IMG/VR virus record: IMGVR_UViG_2563366924_000005
Coordinates: 1-40,849 of that record
Strand: one strand, 5' to 3'
DNA length: 40,849 nt
Origin: a virus
Taxonomy: Duplodnaviria; Heunggongvirae; Uroviricota; Caudoviricetes
How positions within the stretch are numbered: the first letter of the stretch is position 1; each line of letters starts with the position of its first letter. Shown here piece after piece: positions 16,956 to 25,274 of the stretch. The translations under genes were made by a program, and so were the position numbers. Below the pieces are notes generated by a model. The model was not told the DNA's origin. It saw only the letters and a program-made list of their open reading frames with translations, and searched no databases.

Positions 16956-19172
16956 TTACTGCTGTGGTTGTTGCTGAGTTGATTTTTGCAGGATGCTGCT
17001 GATGTCCATGCGCTGCGCATGGCCCTGTGCCTGACTTTTCAGGACAAGCTCTGCATCAGCACGGGCATTGTCTCCTTGCTGTTGCTGGAACTGTCCGAGC
17101 AGTTTCAGAGCCTCGCGGATATCAGATTTCTGCTGGCTATCAGCAGATGCGAGGATTTTCACAACGTTTGCCGCTGCAACCTGAGCATCAGTCTGTGCCT
17201 GGAATGCTTTAACCTGAATGGCTGCCTGCTCGTTCTGCGCTTTCTGCAATTCAGCCTGACCAGCAAGAAGCTGACCTTGCGCAGCAACCATAGCCGGATC
17301 TGGCTGACTGGCCTGTTGTTGTTTCGCCTGCTCAACCATCTGCTGTTCTTCTGGCGTTCTCGGCTTGATAACTCCAGACAGAAGCAACTGATTGCGGTTG
17401 TATTCTTTAAGGTCGTCCATCCCTTCGCCGTCCATATTGTCGAGGATCATCGACGATACAAGGTCGTGTTTCGGCGTTCCGGGCGGGATAAGTGCCAGCA
17501 TGGAAAGTAACGACTTAACCGTTGCGTCACGGCGAGTAGCGAACGACTGACCGACATCGACAGTCACTTCATAGTTACCCTGCGAAAGGTCGTTAAGCGC
17601 GATAACCTGCCCTGTCTGACGGTCAACCACTTCACCAGTCATCAGCGCCACGTCATCGCTGCCGTCCTCATTAACGATACGCATCGGCGTATCACTGCCA
17701 TAGACCTCACGCGCCATAGAAAGCCACACAACGCCAGCGCGGCGCATGGATTTAGCCATGTTGTCCATGTAGATATAGGACTGCGTGTCCATCCTGTTAA
17801 AAATGCTATCAACGGTATCGGTGGCGACGTTGCTCGGCATGTTCTCAAACTGCGACGCACCTGTAATTTGCTGAATAGCCGTTCCGGTGTACTGCAATAG
17901 CCCGGCAAGAGCTGGAGGCATTTGTGTCGGAGGCGTATAACTGCTGACCTGAGCCTGCGCTGTAATATCTCCGTTTTTGTTTTTCAGACTGACCATCGGC
18001 AGGAACGCCGGGCGCTTTTTGTTTCGCTCCGCCCAATGAGTGGCGAGAGTACCAGGAATCATGTCAACATCAACTACAGGAATGCCATCACCGCCAGCCT
18101 GAGTAGCGTTATCTGCAATCATGGAAACCATCAGGTTCTCAAGACGCTGTGCATCCATCGCTTTTGCTGCGTGGCCTTCAATTCGCTCCTGATTATCAAC
18201 AAATGAGCGACGCCCATATACCGGGATGAGAGGAATATGTTCACCCGGAATACGCTTCGGTTCTTCCAGCCATTCAGCGCCAGACAGAAGACCGCAATAA
18301 ACGCGGCGCTTCTTCACCGTTCGCTCGCCAATCAGTTCGAATGCACCATCGGTCAGCTCGTCGACAATATCTTTGATTTGCTCTTCATCATAGATTGCCG
18401 TTTCTCCGCTAACAGGGTTGCGCCACGCCGTGAGCTTCACCTTCTCTATGCGGACTTCATAGTAGCGACCAACATAGATAGCATCAGGAGTTGACCAGTC
18501 ATATTGAGTGCCAGTGTCATCACGAGAAAGACTTGCAGCGATGGAATCAGGGTATTCAGCTTCGAACGCTTTAGGCGTCATGGAGAACATTTCCATAGCC
18601 CACATAGCATCAGAGCGGTCATATTGCTTGCTGTCCTGATCGAAGAAGACGCATGTCGCTGGGTCGTAAACAGGAAGAAGGCTGATGCGTCGCTGCTCGT
18701 TACTTGGGTCCATTTCATCTTCGTAATCGGCACACATGCGGAAACAACCGAATCCGCCCGTTACAGCATCATCAAATGCGTTATCACACGCTTCGCCACC
18801 TGATGTTTCCTGATAGTCAGCGCGGAATTTGCCGTTCATCTTTTCGGCTAACGCTTCCGATGCCTTATCGTCCTTCGGCCTGAATTTAACGCTGATGCGA
18901 TTCTGTCGATACTCGCCAATGATGCGATCACATTCACGGGCAATCTTATTCAATTCAAAACGCGGATAATGCTCGAACCTGCCTTCATCAAATGAGTAAC
19001 CAGCGTTTGTGCTGCCTTCCCACTGTGCGCCGGACACCCGGACGAAACGTTGAGCCTCAATAATCTGCTCACGCATATCCTGCGTTGCTGACCAGGCATT
19101 ATCAAAGTTGCACAGCACCTTGCGATGCCAGTCAGTCATCTTTCTATCATCAGCCATCATCCAACTCCGCAA
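16956..19172 (-). CDS. Portal protein, P22 gp1 homolog
   Basis: 738 aa; motifs GEHIPLIPVYG, PAMVAAQGQLLAGQAELQKAQNEQ and ARADAELVLKSQAQGHAQRMDISSILQ match recalled P22 portal ([61 protein letters not shown]). Confidence 0.85.
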   Translation of the reverse strand: MRSWMMADDRKMTDWHRKVLCNFDNAWSATQDMREQIIEAQRFVRVSGAQWEGSTNAGYSFDEGRFEHYPRFELNKIARECDRIIGEYRQNRISVKFRPKDDKASEALAEKMNGKFRADYQETSGGEACDNAFDDAVTGGFGCFRMCADYEDEMDPSNEQRRISLLPVYDPATCVFFDQDSKQYDRSDAMWAMEMFSMTPKAFEAEYPDSIAASLSRDDTGTQYDWSTPDAIYVGRYYEVRIEKVKLTAWRNPVSGETAIYDEEQIKDIVDELTDGAFELIGERTVKKRRVYCGLLSGAEWLEEPKRIPGEHIPLIPVYGRRSFVDNQERIEGHAAKAMDAQRLENLMVSMIADNATQAGGDGIPVVDVDMIPGTLATHWAERNKKRPAFLPMVSLKNKNGDITAQAQVSSYTPPTQMPPALAGLLQYTGTAIQQITGASQFENMPSNVATDTVDSIFNRMDTQSYIYMDNMAKSMRRAGVVWLSMAREVYGSDTPMRIVNEDGSDDVALMTGEVVDRQTGQVIALNDLSQGNYEVTVDVGQSFATRRDATVKSLLSMLALIPPGTPKHDLVSSMILDNMDGEGMDDLKEYNRNQLLLSGVIKPRTPEEQQMVEQAKQQQASQPDPAMVAAQGQLLAGQAELQKAQNEQAAIQVKAFQAQTDAQVAAANVVKILASADSQQKSDIREALKLLGQFQQQQGDNARADAELVLKSQAQGHAQRMDISSILQKSTQQQPQQ

Positions 19173-20653
19173 GGTATGTTGTAGCTTGAGTAATCAATCT
19201 CTTTAGGATCTTTGATGTCTCGCATCTGTATTGCAAAACGCCTCATCATGTAGCCATAGCGAACAGCAGAAAGGATGTCGTCATTTAGCTTGACGATCTT
19301 CCCGTTCTCATCGCGGTGATACAGGCGAAACTCTTCAAAGAATGGCTCGCAGGTGTTAAATACCTTGAAACGACCGTCGAGCATCATGTCGCGTATCTCT
19401 GCTATCCCGGGTTCGACCGCATTACCTCCATCAGGCCATGTTGCATGATCTGGCAACATATCGAACCCAGCGTCGGCGTATTGTTCCTTGAGCTGAGCGC
19501 CGCCTCCCTTTTCGTGCTGATGCCCGTCATGAGGCCAAGCCGTAGGGGTGTTTTTGCTCCATGCTTTAACAGCACTCCATGCCTCTGTCGCCTTCTTCTG
19601 TTTGGCCTTCCAGACGCGAGAAAGATAAATCACGTCCTCGTCTTTATCCCACCAAAGCTGGATGTGTGCCTGTGGGTGATCCCATCCGAAGTCCATTGCA
19701 TTGATGACGTAGAAGTGATCAGGACACTCGAACGGCTGACACTTAATAGTCTCTTCCGGTATCTGGAAGATTCGACCACTACCCATCGTAGGAATACCGC
19801 GAGCACGCGCCTCTCTCTCATGCTCAGGATAGGATGCGATGATTTGCTCTTTCTGCTCGTCGGTATAGTGCTCAGCGTCATAGATGGTCATGTTGACCAC
19901 TTTCTGCGACTTGCTGGGATTCTTCAGGAACTTGGTAACAACGTCAGACATCCCCATCAGCGGGGTAAACGTCAGAATTGAGAATTGCCCGTATTTGTTG
20001 GTACGGGTAAGACCTTCGCCATAAATGCTGTATGGTGGCTCTTCGTCAAACCACACGCCGTGGATTGTGTCACCCTGCCAGCGAGCGCGGCCTTGCGAGT
20101 ATGGTTTGAAGTAGCAGATTGAAATGCCATCTTCAACGCCATCAGCCGTGTGATGCTTAACCAGAAGGTGATCAACAAGGTTCGGAAAGAAAGGAGACTT
20201 CTTCCAGCTAATGATGTCCTCTTTCGGTATTGAACCGTAGCCCGGCTCATCATTCTCTTCAATACGACCGCACAGGATGCGTTGAGTCGTTTTGGTTACC
20301 GTCTCGTTTGTCTCGCCACCAATCCAGAAGACAACAGGCTCATAGAAACGCTTACCTTTCCACTCACCGCCATATTTACCATCAGCAGGATAGCCTTTTG
20401 TGCCCGGATAACGCCCTGTAAGGTGAAACGCGACTTCAGCAGCACCAGTAAATGACTTACCAAGCTGGTTACCAGCCATAAAACAGCGCTCTGGATAGTC
20501 ATGTCCGGCGTCGATGAACTCACGCTGTTTGCTGTATGGCGTAAATTCATATAGCAGGTGTGTGTTCCGGTAGTTCTCTTCTTCTTCGAGTAGCTCGAGC
20601 AACTCGATTTGCTCTTCGTCGCTCAGGTTATCAAGAATCGCGTCCAGTTCCAC
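19157..20653 (-). CDS. Terminase large subunit, P22 gp2 homolog
   Basis: 498 aa; N-terminus [37 protein letters not shown]... matches recalled P22 gp2; overlaps the portal start. Confidence 0.85.
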
Positions 20654-21119
20654 GGTTGAATAGCTCCTTGATACGAGAGCGCCGCTTATCGCGATCTCCC
20701 TTATCAGGTGTCACGTCTTCAACTTGCGACTGCTCTTTGAGGCCCAAATCACGGGCGATGATGTTAGCGTTGAGAAGGTCAGCGGCTGCGCCAGAGAATT
20801 TCTGGTCGTAGATGATGTCTTCCGCTCGTGATGTGACGTCAGAAAAACCTTCCATTGACCGGAAGGTTCCCCATGTTTGCCTGGTGATATCAAGGAAGGT
20901 ACACAATCCTGAAATAGTCATGGCTCGCATCTTAGGGACATTAGCCTTAATTATTTCTCCCTGATATGAAAATACCTTGCCCTCCCATAGCGGGTTATCA
21001 TCAGCCCACTCGAAGTATTCACAACAAGCAGCCCACAGCGCCTCAGGCGATTCGAATTTAGGGTTTCGCCCATGACTACTGCGGGCCTCCCAAAATCGGT
21101 TGCCCTTTGGTGCTGCCAT
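20631..21119 (-). CDS. Terminase small subunit, P22 gp3 homolog
   Basis: 162 aa; N-terminus [38 protein letters not shown] and C-terminus [39 protein letters not shown] essentially identical to recalled P22 gp3. Confidence 0.9.
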
Positions 21120-21124
21120 ATTGA

Positions 21125-21613
21125 TTATTTCCCTTCTGTTTGCTTCCCAGCGGGGAACGAATCAACGCTGCCGCCGGAATAGCAGTCAAGATCAATTGCG
21201 ACTTGTACCGCTTCTCTCGCATTTTTGCCGCAGTGCATGGCTGTGCGAGCAATCAGCCAACCACTACCAATGGCATACGGTTCAACCTGTCGCGAAATAC
21301 TCGCCCGCGTTTCGCCTTTCTCTTTTGAGATGATGTAAGCACGACCAGCACCGATGATAGCAAGCGCGGTGAAAGAGAATGTCGGGAGAAATTCTGATGC
21401 ATACGTCAGGTTGTTCTTAAGCAGTTCCTGCAATTCCATCTCCGCGCCGCAATCACCAGAACAACCTAATGCAACCACTTTACTGCCGCAAACCTCCCAC
21501 CCAGATTCTGGCGGTGTGTAAATCTTTTGTTCTGTATACGAACACACAACATCACCAGATGATGCCTGGGTGTCAGATGCCAGGGTCTTTCCATCCCATG
21601 CAATAGTGGTCAT
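21125..21613 (-). CDS. HslV/proteasome-beta-like Ntn-hydrolase (putative threonine peptidase)
   Basis: 162 aa starting MTTIAWDG (Thr right after Met, as in HslV MTTIVSV); [18 protein letters not shown] aligns with HslV AGFAGGTADAFTLFELF; AIGSG motif present; sits between the lysis cassette and terminase. Confidence 0.6.
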
Positions 21614-21614
21614 A

Positions 21615-21857
21615 TCATGCTCCGGTGGTGAACAGGTCTAACGCTTCCTTCGATTTACGCACCGCTTCAATAGTTCGGGTCGTGATATCTGAATTAGCGC
21701 CGCCTGACTGGAAGTGAATTTTGAATAGCTCAAGCTTCAGCTCGTCAGTGCCAATGAACTGAAATGCTTCTTCTGCGGCTGCGTTCTGGTTCATGACCAG
21801 TTTGTAAATCTCTAACTGGAATTTCTGTTCTTCAGTCATGGGAATAACCTCTGCCAT
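21615..21857 (-). CDS. Hypothetical protein (80 aa) coupled to the HslV-like gene
   Basis: Its stop overlaps the HslV-like start; no recognisable motif. Confidence 0.45.
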   Translation of the reverse strand: MAEVIPMTEEQKFQLEIYKLVMNQNAAAEEAFQFIGTDELKLELFKIHFQSGGANSDITTRTIEAVRKSKEALDLFTTGA

Positions 21858-22160
21858 TGTTGGCTCCGTTTATCCGTTAAAAGGGATATCAGTTAAGTTA
21901 TCCCGTGTAGGGTATAAGCTATTGTCGAGACCACTCATTGAATGGTCTCTGCAATAACCGATGTCTTTCCATCAGTCCGCCACCACAAAGAATCTTTTTT
22001 GCCATAAGGCTGGAGGTTCATCTTTCAGTGGCTGCCAGTGTTATTTCCCCACTTTCTGGCTTGGGTTGCTTCGTGGTACTGCCGTTAACTGGTGACCTAG
22101 AATAAATTCCGGTTTCATTATCAAGCCCACCCGTAGATGGGCTTTGTAATGCCTACATGG

Positions 22161-22631
22161 TTAAATGATTTGCCAGTCTTCTGCTAGAACATCAGTCTGA
22201 CTAGCCAGCCACGGTACTAATTTATCGTCCGCTGTCTTCATGCAAATGCATGGCAGCGTCACAAGGCCATTAACTCCGTCCAGGTCACACTCAAACCCCC
22301 AAGCATTCTGCTGGATAATGAACAGATATATCCCCTTACCATTCCAGCCAGCACGGGCAACTTTATTCCCCAACTTGAGCGCTTCAATGGCAAGGCCGAA
22401 ACTTAGCCCTGATACCGGACGATAAGCCTTTTCGAATACTTCTTTTGGACTCCAGCTAACGTAGCCATCAAAGCGATCGGTGTTAGGTTTTCCGCCATCA
22501 AGATATTCAACCAGATAGCCTTCATCCTCGCCGTTTTCTCCGGCAGGAAGCTGCCAGCCACGAAAATCGTTATATGCCTGTCTCGTCATCGGAAAGGCGT
22601 TAATCAGTTTTACGCCAATATGCTGGGTCAT
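22161..22631 (-). CDS. DUF2829-domain protein (Tad2-type fold) with N-terminal extension
   Basis: C-terminal half ...ALKLGNKVARAGWNGKG...VTLPCICMKTADDKLVPWLASQTDVLAEDWQII matches the DUF2829 signature as I recall it (GWNGKG ... YIxMKT...LVPWxxSQTDLLAEDWEI); preceded by a terminator after Rz. Confidence 0.6.
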   Translation of the reverse strand: MTQHIGVKLINAFPMTRQAYNDFRGWQLPAGENGEDEGYLVEYLDGGKPNTDRFDGYVSWSPKEVFEKAYRPVSGLSFGLAIEALKLGNKVARAGWNGKGIYLFIIQQNAWGFECDLDGVNGLVTLPCICMKTADDKLVPWLASQTDVLAEDWQII

Positions 22632-22652
22632 AAAATTACCTATAGAGTTGGG

Positions 22653-22677
22653 AATAAAAAGCCCCGCATCGCGAGGC
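22653..22677 (-). terminator. Rho-independent terminator downstream of Rz/Rz1
   Basis: On the minus strand: stem gcctcgc/gcggggc (one G-U pair) with loop gat, followed by TTTTT. Confidence 0.45.
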
Positions 22678-22709
22678 TCATTAAATGGACTTTGTGATTT
22701 GCAAAAAAA

Positions 22710-23177
22710 TTATTTCAGGCATTGCGTCCTGATGTATTCCTGCAGGTAGTTAACCTGCGCGGTTATCCTGTCGATTCCACTTCGGAGACGGTAATAATTG
22801 AGTTCAGCATCTGCTGTAAGTCTTGGGCTTTCTCCATCGCCCATGCTGCTGGCTCCGGTCGTTGACTTTGCACAGGTGGCGGCGACTTGCAGCCGCTTAC
22901 GGCCAGCAATGACATCGCTATGCAGACGCTCAATGGTTTCTTTCGCATCAGCCAGTTCTCCGGTGTATTTGGCATCCAGTGCAGCGACATCACGCTGGCG
23001 GGTCTGCATGTCTTTAATGGTGGCGGTCGCCAGGAGGAGTTTCTCAGTGGCCTTATCGCGCTGGTCTCTGTAAGTGATGGCGTTGTCGCGGTAGTGGTTC
23101 ACGAAGAAAGCCAGTGCGCCGATTAACGCCAGCACCAGCAACTGCAGCCAGTAACGCTTAACCAGTGCGCTAATCAT
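22710..23177 (-). CDS. Rz i-spanin (P22 gene 15-like)
   Basis: 155 aa, N-terminal TM anchor ([16 protein letters not shown]), coiled-coil periplasmic part; contains the embedded Rz1 reading frame; follows lysozyme. Confidence 0.75.
22763..22948 (-). CDS. Rz1 o-spanin lipoprotein, embedded in Rz in another frame
   Basis: [20 protein letters not shown] lipobox signal followed by a proline-rich segment; classic embedded Rz1 architecture. Confidence 0.7.
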
Positions 23178-23623
23178 GACAGGAACAGAGCTCGCTCTGC
23201 CTTGCGGCGATTCGTGAGCCCCGGCATCACCTTTCCGCCTGATTTATTCCAGCGCAGAAATTCATCTGCCGCGCCTTTTATATCGCCAGCATTCAGCTTT
23301 TTCAGCAGTGTAGATGTGGAAAGAGCACGCGACCCAACGTTGTAAGCGAACGACACCAGTGCGTCGAACTGGCCTTGTGTCAGCTTCACCCTGACAACTT
23401 TCAGCACGTCATTCTCATAACCAACAAGCCCTGTTTTCAGAAGCCTGTCAGCGGTTTGCTGGTCGATAGTCATACCGCGCTTTACTGGCTTTCCGTCAAC
23501 CGGATGGGTCCAGCCATAGCCGATGGTCCACGGCGCATCTCCCGTTCCGGGGTCGGGGTAAGCAGTCAGCCGACAACCTTCAAATTTTTTTATCAGAGCA
23601 ATTCCGTCAGGACTGGTTTGCAT
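23174..23623 (-). CDS. Endolysin, T4-lysozyme-type (glycoside hydrolase family 24)
   Basis: ORF 23174-23695; from [39 protein letters not shown] the sequence shows the lysozyme catalytic E...D...T motif; downstream of holin. Confidence 0.8.
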
Positions 23624-23960
23624 CGTCAACTCCCGCCTTTTTTGCTGCAAGTTTTTTAATAAGATTGCCGATCGAATCGGTGCCGATGTATCCAATAAAG
23701 ACGCTGGCTATGTAGGCGAGGTTGCTGCTCAGGCCGATAAAGTCCAGAAGGTCACGAACGAACCAGGCAATCATCGCGCACATCAGCGCATCAATTAGCG
23801 TTTTTGTTACCGCGCCGCCGTTATAGCGACCACGCAGATACGCCATGATAAAAGCCAGCATTGCACCAATACCCTGCTCCTTGGCGGCAAGTAGCGCAGC
23901 GATGAAATCTTGTTTGTATGGCAATTTTTTCTCCCTACGCCTGGCACGCGAATTGACCAT
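23607..23960 (-). CDS. Class I holin, lambda S-like
   Basis: ...[93 protein letters not shown] closely matches recalled lambda S. Confidence 0.8.
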
Positions 23961-24435
23961 GATATTTCCCCCTAAACTCTGAGATTACCAACTCAGCAAG
24001 TTCGAGATCATCGAAGTAACCCAACCAGATCTGCTTCTTATTTCTACTTCCGCAAACTCTCCATTTCCCATTCTTAACATCAAGCCTGACGCCCTTTATG
24101 GGATTCTTTCCTCCGGATGGTTTGCGTCTGTTATATTGATTTTCTGATTTGGTCGATAATCTGAGGTTTTTAATGCCATTGTTTAATGGGTTTCTATCTA
24201 AATGATCCACGTCCATTTCTGGCATGCATCCATATACATACAACCAAGCCAGCCGATGCTCTTTATAGATTTTCCCATCTATACGTATTTGCCTGTAACC
24301 AGATCCATTAATCGTTCCAGCTCTTGAGCCAACTTTAATTCTGCGATTGCTGGATTTAACCCAAGTAAAAACCCCTGAAACAGGATCATAGTGCATAAGG
24401 CTTTTCAGGACTTGCTGAGTGATTACCATTTTCAT
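23935..24435 (-). CDS. HNH homing-endonuclease-like protein (HNH plus AP2-type DNA-binding domain), copy 1
   Basis: Start MKMVITQQ with GGAGGTGA ribosome-binding site; motifs [24 protein letters not shown] and [12 protein letters not shown]; inserted between tRNA-Asn and holin; AT-rich. Confidence 0.75.
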
Positions 24436-24617
24436 AGGCCTCACCTCCGATTTTCCGGATGGTGCTGTGTGTGTTTGTAGGGGAAAGGCCGTCAGACTCT
24501 GATTGCTACATGGCATCTGAAAATGATATCTGCGGCCTGCAATAAAAAAGCCCACGGCGCGGTGGGCAATAGAGGGTAGTGCGTTGAGCTTTTGCTCTTA
24601 TGGTCCTGGTAGGTATT

Positions 24618-24755: not shown

Positions 24756-25274
24756 CTAAATGGCTAATTGCATGTCAAGGTTTTTAACAGCAACATGCTT
24801 AACTTTCTCAACACGTTTACGCATTTTGAAAGCATTTTGCATTGGTTGGTACAAAACAAATAATGACGCTTTCAGGATGTCGTCAATTTCATTTCTACAG
24901 GTTGCCAGTGAAGGTTTTCTCCATCCCTCGCCACCACGTCCACACATCTTGCGTGGCTTTGCAGTCGCGTGATAGTAGGATGCAATTGCTCGCTTAGATG
25001 AACCATGAGCGTAGTAGCTGAGGAGGATGCCAAAGGCTTTCTTGTCAATGTACATGACGGAATCGACGACCTGAGAAATCAACATTCCATCGTCATCATT
25101 ACACATTGGCCTTGTAATAACTCTTCCCGGCTCTACGCTCTCCATGAACTTCGCTATTACGCTGCTCATGCGCTTTTCCAGACGACCTGAATAAACCCAT
25201 GCGCCCCATAGTTCAAGCCATCCATTCAGCCAATCGTGCTGCTCTTTGGTGAGGTTTATTTCTCTTATGCTCAT
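24756..25274 (-). CDS. Late-gene antiterminator Q (QuuD-type)
   Basis: 172 aa; WLELWGAWV and CNDDDGMLIS motifs resemble QuuD-type Q proteins as I recall them; position just upstream of the lysis cassette and downstream of ninH/rusA. Confidence 0.65.
   Translation of the reverse strand: MSIREINLTKEQHDWLNGWLELWGAWVYSGRLEKRMSSVIAKFMESVEPGRVITRPMCNDDDGMLISQVVDSVMYIDKKAFGILLSYYAHGSSKRAIASYYHATAKPRKMCGRGGEGWRKPSLATCRNEIDDILKASLFVLYQPMQNAFKMRKRVEKVKHVAVKNLDMQLAI

Follow-up and report, generated by a model that had tools for sequence, protein, structure and literature searches.

What is the function of a 156-amino-acid protein that a temperate, P22-like phage encodes between its lysis and its packaging genes? 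This question is raised by a gene in a stretch of 40,849 nucleotides from a tailed virus (IMG/VR record IMGVR_UViG_2563366924_000005), hereafter called the window. The initial annotation had proposed the product as a candidate anti-defence sponge, and this is still the best reading, the protein having the sequence, the modelled fold and the pocket residues of Tad2. The Tad2 identity as such is routine, since it is also reached by Pfam, by PGAP and, for the orthologue Kapi1_043, by a paper of 2026. The Tad2 family and the hypothesis on Kapi1_043 are already known; what invites further attention is the N-terminal domain, to which we refer as domain X.

The gene is located on the minus strand at 22161..22631 (stop codon included) and starts with an ATG, 7 nt upstream of which a Shine-Dalgarno-like AGGT (22638..22641, minus strand) can be read from the sequence. 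The interval originally assigned to it, 22161-22677, does contain the coding sequence, together with the leader and most of a terminator, the gene itself being confined to 22161..22631. Over its full length the product matches PHROG 872 (E 6.6e-68). It consists of domain X (aa 1-75; 22407..22631, minus strand), followed by a Tad2/DUF2829 domain (aa 77-156; 22164..22403, minus strand) that was identified by PF11195, a PDB search and Foldseek. All neighbouring genes are encoded on the same, minus strand. Upstream, they comprise a Q antiterminator (24756-25274; PF06530), a homing-endonuclease-like HNH/AP2 endonuclease (HNH_3 and AP2; 23935-24555), a holin (23607-23960), a lysozyme (23174-23695) and Rz (22710-23177; PF03245, E 5.5e-39), in which an Rz1-like open reading frame is embedded (22763-22993). 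Downstream, a non-coding linker of 303 bp (21858..22160, minus strand) is followed by a DUF2560 gene (21615-21857), an HslV-like gene (21125-21613; 162 aa; PHROG 1040 'peptidase HslV family', E 3e-37), the small terminase gene gp3 (20631-21119) and the large terminase gene (19157-20653). In this order the genes make up the late operon of a P22-like phage, in whose leader region the endonuclease frame lies, between the Q antiterminator and the holin. The HslV-like frame, which has no Pfam match, lies between DUF2560 and the small terminase as another variable cargo gene of the slot, and phage Dewey has one too. The nearest record is Escherichia phage Louie, with 99% identity over this region. 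Near-identical genes of Louie (CDS0064; L001:639-1109) and Huey have been automatically annotated as 'anti-CRISPR protein', because the DUF2829 domain is common to AcrIIA7; for these E. coli phage copies the label is probably wrong.

The presence of DUF2829 in the C-terminal half, as originally claimed, is borne out by profile match, modelled fold and pocket residues alike. Residues 77-156 match PF11195 (Tad2-like) with 90.5 bits and an E-value of 9.9e-26 over positions 2-73 of the 73 profile positions, the curated cut-off of this family being 25 bits. A sequence search of the PDB retrieved SPO1 Tad2 (8sme/8wje; E 1.4e-16), to which, among solved relatives, its sequence is closest (46% identical over 82 residues), as well as ModTad2, SptTad2, HgmTad2/AcrIIA7 and pdAcrIIA7. 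An AlphaFold2 model of the monomer, built from 65 homologues, has a mean pLDDT of 90 and displays the Tad2 fold, with an antiparallel sheet after an N-terminal helix. Foldseek, a comparison with Tad2 that the initial annotation had itself put forward as a check, matched this model to the solved structures of ModTad2, SptTad2, SPO1 Tad2 and HgmTad2 at E-values of 6e-8 to 5e-6, with target TM-scores of 0.62-0.85 (9EIB, 8WJD, 8WJE, 8SMF and 8KBI). Besides these solved Tad2 structures, the full-length model gave no match below E 0.9.

In SPO1 Tad2, gcADPR is contacted by W25, N26, I63, T65, D67, H71, W73, S76, T78 and D79 (bioRxiv 10.1101/2023.05.01.538930). According to the HMMER alignment, these residues map to W96, N97, M131, T133, D135, V139, W141, S144, T146 and D147 of the window protein, so that eight of the ten contacts are identical (W25, N26, T65, D67, W73, S76, T78 and D79) and two positions are unlike SPO1 (I63M and H71V). 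The identical contacts include W25, N26, W73 and D79, from which most van der Waals and polar contacts originate; this W, N, W and D are invariant across the 65 homologues with the X-Tad2 architecture, in which the remaining contacts vary little. The insertion between strands β2 and β3 counts 21 residues; no member of the subfamily has a shorter one, the median being 27 and the maximum 41. HgmTad2 and SptTad2 depend for their extra cyclic-dinucleotide pocket on an insertion (~41 residues) about twice as long as that of SPO1 Tad2, and because the insertion is short here, such an HgmTad2-type pocket is, as far as the sequence tells, unlikely in this protein. Since Tad2 homologues vary in their ligand (His-ADPR, N7-cADPR, cCMP/cUMP and cyclic dinucleotides), gcADPR is just the most probable ligand for the X-Tad2 protein. 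SPO1 Tad2 (Gp34.65; 8SME/8SMF/8SMG, 8WJE) thus shares with it the DUF2829 fold, the key gcADPR contacts and a similarly short β2-β3 insertion. It differs in being a single domain of 89 amino acids, to which the window protein adds an N-terminal domain of 75 amino acids, and the window phage, unlike SPO1, is a temperate, P22-like phage of a Gram-negative host.

Of the N-terminal extension of 80 residues that had been described, the extra domain is real and the length needs correction to 75-76 residues. It is moreover not peculiar to this protein, being a widespread independent domain of several sponge families. Modelled alone, domain X is a small β/α domain with the order strand-helix-strand-strand-helix (pLDDT 94.7). 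It is conserved above the Tad2 half, with 22 invariant positions in 65 sequences, among which K8, R17, Y20, N21, W26, E32, D36, E42, Y43, D45, G46, G47, N50, Y57, S59, W60, S61, P62 and Y70, and at the sequence level this conservation would seem to exceed the apparent need of a simple dimerisation tag. With 8 K+R versus 11 D+E the domain is net negative. It has no match in Pfam or NCBIfam, even at E <= 10, and no sequence match in the PDB.

A structural counterpart was found in RyR Tad, which is gp68 of Pectobacterium phage vB_PatP_CB1 and for which a crystal structure and truncations are available (bioRxiv 10.64898/2026.06.04.730250). The N-terminal domain of RyR Tad is domain-swapped, with strand β1 of one protomer completing the five-stranded sheet of its partner, and aids dimerisation; residues 1-86 of gp68 alone showed no apparent effect on type I Thoeris, the only system reported (bioRxiv 10.64898/2026.06.04.730250). 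An X HMM matches residues 2-80 of gp68 with 35 bits (E 2e-7 in a million-sequence search space), a distant homology, and a Foldseek search of BFVD with the X model found a RyR-domain protein of Yersinia phage TG1 (probability 1.0, TM-score 0.67). Because of these two matches, domain X is assigned, as judged from profile and model, to the same family as the N-terminal domain of RyR Tad. Both proteins thus consist of an X homologue followed by a gcADPR-binding sponge domain, but the C-terminal sponge of RyR Tad is an all-helical RyR repeat (PF02026) instead of Tad2, RyR Tad is a dimer and its X domain lacks the DGG-x-PN loop. Residues 2-5 of the window protein form a strand in the full-length model and none in the model of the isolated domain, which may hint at a β1 swap.

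Several known domains were considered for domain X and rejected. Acb4 was suggested by tblastn, which aligned the Pm86 Acb4-Tad2 fusion over the full length; however, the N-terminus of the Pm86 protein is PF13876 and the alignment of X with it is spurious. The X HMM does not match the Pm86 fusion, domain X gives no profile match to PF13876 even at E <= 10, and both occur as separate domains within single proteins of Pseudomonas phage inbricus and Rhizobium phage RHph_X3_15. Lockin, an elongated β protein that forms hexamers and is reported to be missing from INPHARED phages, was ruled out: X is fused upstream of Lockin-like domains, and it is present in 137 INPHARED records. Sequestin was rejected as well, and the helical head of pdAcrIIA7 was discarded on length and secondary structure.

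In order to delineate how widely domain X occurs, its profile was searched among 1.84 billion representatives, which yielded 2981 clusters (50% identity) at E <= 1e-3, of which 1404 also pass E <= 1e-10. Pfam searches on the best 150 of the 2981 clusters identified Tad2 in 54, Sequestin (PF21825) in 41, Acb4 (PF13876) in 15 and an Acb2/Tad1 hairpin in one, with X preceding Tad2 in 53 of the 54 Tad2 carriers; four members of these best 150 are proteins of at most 100 amino acids. Altogether, domain X partners at least six kinds of sponge, namely Tad2, Sequestin, Acb4, RyR Tad, Lockin and the Acb2/Tad1 hairpin. Acb4 is a tetrameric cGAMP sponge. Sequestin, a 3'cADPR sponge, was discovered because Pfam architectures show it joined to Tad2 and Acb4 (Tal et al., bioRxiv 10.1101/2025.07.12.664507). 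Combinations of three domains are encoded by inbricus (X-Acb4-Sequestin) and RHph_X3_15 (Acb4-X-Sequestin). In the supplement of that study, at least 85 Sequestin and 2 Lockin homologues also have the motifs of X, a domain that its text does not mention, presumably because a Pfam entry is missing. The X motifs were not found in three supplementary files of a study with 18 tested Tad2 homologues (bioRxiv 2025.08.24.671296), files that may lack sequences. Free-standing X genes exist too (73-78 amino acids). In Erwinia phage phiEaP8 such a gene lies beside the virion RNA polymerase gene, which is the position of the X-Tad2 gene in N4, and in one metagenomic phage it lies between ribonucleotide reductase and glutaredoxin genes, no Tad2 being nearby. 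Homologues with the X-Tad2 architecture number thousands; the best 120 listed are 140-215 amino acids long, almost every one of them aligning along the entire query, and 95 phage records cover at least 80% of it. In one metagenomic protein of 354 amino acids (P0316) an HNH_3 and AP2 endonuclease module sits between X and Tad2, possibly a homing endonuclease that has invaded the junction of both domains.

The X-Tad2 architecture is found in coliphage N4 gp49 (ABK54417, 160 aa; X HMM E 3e-30) and in 'DUF2829 domain-containing proteins' of N4-like and Vibrio phages, Klebsiella, Raoultella and Citrobacter, this group differing from the window protein by an identity of about 46-54%. The N4 gene also has another setting, as it is located beside Acb4 and the virion RNA polymerase and not between lysis and packaging genes; the gene before gp49 is gp48 (EF056009 numbering), which encodes Acb4. 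Both gp48 and gp49 lie within the 'anti-signalling hotspot' of a 2026 preprint (bioRxiv 10.64898/2026.06.04.730250). In the literature we found no experimental study of N4 gp49 and no paper that ties gp49 to Tad2. In the N4 record (L010:2109-2962; EF056009 33632-34485), gp48 is PF13876 and gp49 is X-Tad2, while Pfam names PF13876 'N4 Gp49'; such source-dependent numbering of N4 genes could mislead annotation transfer. The Acb4-Tad2 fusion of the Pasteurella phage Pm86 likewise has two domains ending in Tad2, the Tad2 halves of both proteins aligning well, and its gene comes directly behind the lysis genes in a phage that is temperate too, but its N-terminal domain is Acb4 (PF13876, E 3.6e-29). 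The tetrameric pdAcrIIA7 (9KZR) also combines a DUF2829 core with an N-terminal add-on; in its case the add-on is a helical head of 48 residues unrelated to X, the insertion is long and tracrRNA binding has been proposed.

The closest comparison is offered by Kapi1_043 of Escherichia phage vB_EcoP_Kapi1, an orthologue with 75% identity from a P22-like phage, where it occupies the same slot. The two proteins are identical over residues 1-86 and over their last 28 residues, and the downstream linker is the same; Kapi1_043, however, counts 173 amino acids, its β2-β3 insertion is replaced and 17 residues longer, and the upstream lysis genes differ. The gene is an intragenic mosaic: between window positions 22240-22340 (aa ~100-130) and Kapi1_043 (L012:2001-2519), the β2-β3 insertions are unrelated, with 21 versus about 38 residues. 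A related copy is present in 56 of the 5426 complete E. coli genomes (about 1%), and in most of these copies the 5' 296 nt are ~93% identical and the remainder is divergent. Because the β2-β3 loop forms a second ligand pocket in other Tad2 proteins (HgmTad2, ModTad2), the insertion may be under diversifying selection or exchanged as a cassette. In lysogen cultures Kapi1_043 is the most highly expressed Kapi1 gene under all conditions, and it has been proposed as a putative Tad2-like anti-defence gene in this 2026 transcriptome paper (PMC12922286), with which the interpretation given in the initial annotation coincides. Since the capsid and scaffold genes of Kapi1 are highly expressed too, induced cells contribute to the Kapi1_043 signal, which could equally be a hairpin-protected, stable transcript from spontaneously induced cells.

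The gene had further been described as following a rho-independent terminator after Rz/Rz1, and such a terminator is indeed found between Rz and the gene (22651..22679, minus strand). It consists of a hairpin (22679..22659) with a 9-bp stem, including 6 GC pairs, and a 3-nt loop, followed by the U-tract TTTTTATT (-15 kcal/mol), and the hairpin with UUUUUAUU makes a textbook intrinsic terminator. It is located 30 nt downstream of the stop codon of Rz and 27 nt upstream of the ATG. On the other side, 10 nt past the stop codon of the gene, a stable hairpin with a weak U-tract (22116..22151, minus strand; -20.4 kcal/mol, z -5.5) is possibly a 3' stabiliser or a weak terminator, so that two hairpins bracket the X-Tad2 gene. 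Homology between the window and Kapi1 starts about 60 nt before the ATG: both have a hairpin at the same place, with other stem and loop bases, and the lysis genes upstream are unrelated. Conversely, a Citrobacter phage has the lysis genes in common up to about 22656 and lacks the X-Tad2 gene. Because the homology to both phages breaks there, we consider the upstream hairpin to be the recombination joint of the cassette. The downstream joint is the 303-bp linker (21858..22160), which about 200 lambdoid and P22-like phages share at 90-97% conservation (HK022, mEp234, P22, L, epsilon34) and which holds no minus-strand open reading frame of at least 30 amino acids; in the linker-bearing phages HK022, P22, L and epsilon34 the X-Tad2 gene was not detected. 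In some records the 3' end of rha, or an annotated terminator, coincides in part with the linker, and some part of an 891-bp query that includes it (21840-22730) matches about half of the complete E. coli genomes. No Rfam match at E <= 1 was obtained for a structured RNA in the linker or the leader. A simple consensus scan of the minus strand from Rz to the ATG detected no sigma-70-like promoter, a scan that a weak or atypical promoter could escape.

As to the 'classic moron' arrangement attributed to the gene, the slot is variable among relatives, the joints on both sides are conserved and hairpins flank the gene, all of which fit this description; the promoter of its own that would complete it was not found. 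The term 'insulated' has doubtful support, because the gene is part of the late operon downstream of the Q antiterminator, and Q-modified RNA polymerase should read through the terminator.

Taken together, we consider it likely that the protein is a Tad2-type sponge of TIR-made ADP-ribose signals, in which domain X acts as a clamp or cross-link or adds a second activity, and which is encoded by a late-operon cassette. The analysis established which domains are present and in what architecture, their modelled fold, the conservation of the pocket, the distribution and the genomic context, and from these and the characterised relatives we infer the oligomeric state, the ligand, the targeted defence system and the mode of expression. 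By analogy with solved Tad2 proteins, the Tad2 domain would assemble into a homotetramer with pockets between its protomers. This tetramer would trap TIR-made ADP-ribose signals, most likely 1''-3' gcADPR (3'cADPR) and 1''-2' gcADPR, by which the ThsA effector of type I Thoeris would stay off and the infected cell would not abort. Domain X would most likely clamp or cross-link the oligomer, or add a second activity; its pairing would most likely occur through a strand swap, and a tetramer with two X dimers would be compatible with the symmetry of Tad2 tetramers. Located between the lysis and packaging genes, the cassette is probably transcribed from the Q-antiterminated late operon, and the hairpins on either side may stabilise its mRNA. 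Several observations count against this explanation. Tad2 homologues vary in ligand, two of the SPO1 contact positions are replaced, domain X is more conserved than a plain dimerisation tag would seem to require, and its homology to the N-terminal domain of gp68 is distant. Sponges are expected to act early, for which a position in the late operon is unusual, and MP1, the host of Kapi1, has no Thoeris (PMC12922286).

Domain X could instead itself be a sponge or an anti-defence module, in which case the protein would block two things at once, as does the Pm86 Acb4-Tad2 fusion, which blocks both type I Thoeris and type I CBASS (Tal et al., bioRxiv 10.1101/2025.07.12.664507). We hold this only as a tentative possibility. 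It draws on the fusion of X to at least six sponge families, and almost exclusively to sponges, the same logic of being fused to known sponges that yielded Sequestin, on the free-standing occurrence of X as frames of 73-78 amino acids, including those of phiEaP8 and the metagenomic phage, and on a conservation exceeding that of the Tad2 half. Yet gp68_N (residues 1-86) was without apparent activity against type I Thoeris, the sole system reported, and X is net negative, whereas the pockets of known sponges are positively charged. It is conceivable, though we regard it with reserve, that domain X is an overlooked anti-defence module, either a new sponge or a partner that shields sponges from host counter-measures such as decoy-based sensing; fusion-based screens would have missed the domain because it lacks a Pfam model. 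A change of ligand, with Tad2 as a sponge for His-ADPR (type II Thoeris), N7-cADPR (type IV), cCMP/cUMP (Pycsar) or cyclic dinucleotides (CBASS), appears rather unlikely. Individual Tad2 homologues do bind each of these, and the pocket-building β2-β3 insertion is precisely the part that varies between the window and Kapi1 alleles and in E. coli prophages. Against it stand the SPO1-like gcADPR pocket with eight of ten contacts identical, SPO1 Tad2 as the closest solved relative by sequence, and the shortness of the insertion, 21 residues, that of HgmTad2 being about twice SPO1's.

Two readings depart from sequestration of signals altogether. An accessory function in the late operon, by which the protein would bind a nucleotide or NAD metabolite and for instance tune lysis or packaging without inhibiting any defence, is suggested by the location of the gene between lysis and packaging genes and by the stand-alone X of one phage among nucleotide-metabolism genes; given that gene presence varies among close relatives, that all characterised members of the Tad2 family act against defence systems and that X has anti-defence sponges as its partners in fusions, we judge it highly improbable. 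Still harder to credit is an anti-CRISPR of the AcrIIA7 type. AcrIIA7 proteins share the DUF2829 core, Louie CDS0064 (99% identical) bears the label mentioned above and pdAcrIIA7 likewise has an N-terminal add-on, but that label is an automatic annotation, the pdAcrIIA7 head of 48 residues forms two long helices and suppresses Acr activity, being unrelated to the 75-residue β/α domain X, and the literature describes the anti-Cas9 activity of HgmTad2 as not reproducible. Moreover, to our knowledge E. coli hosts carry type I CRISPR systems, and not a type II-A Cas9 with tracrRNA.

If the preferred reading as a Tad2-type sponge is true, temperate P22-like coliphages hold a sponge for Thoeris signals in the slot between lysis and packaging genes, and as these phages are temperate, lysogeny would spread this sponge among E. 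coli. The more useful lead is domain X, with about 3000 clusters, at least six kinds of sponge as partners and one test against one system. Its function would either account for a design element that recurs among phage sponges or bring in another family of inhibitors.
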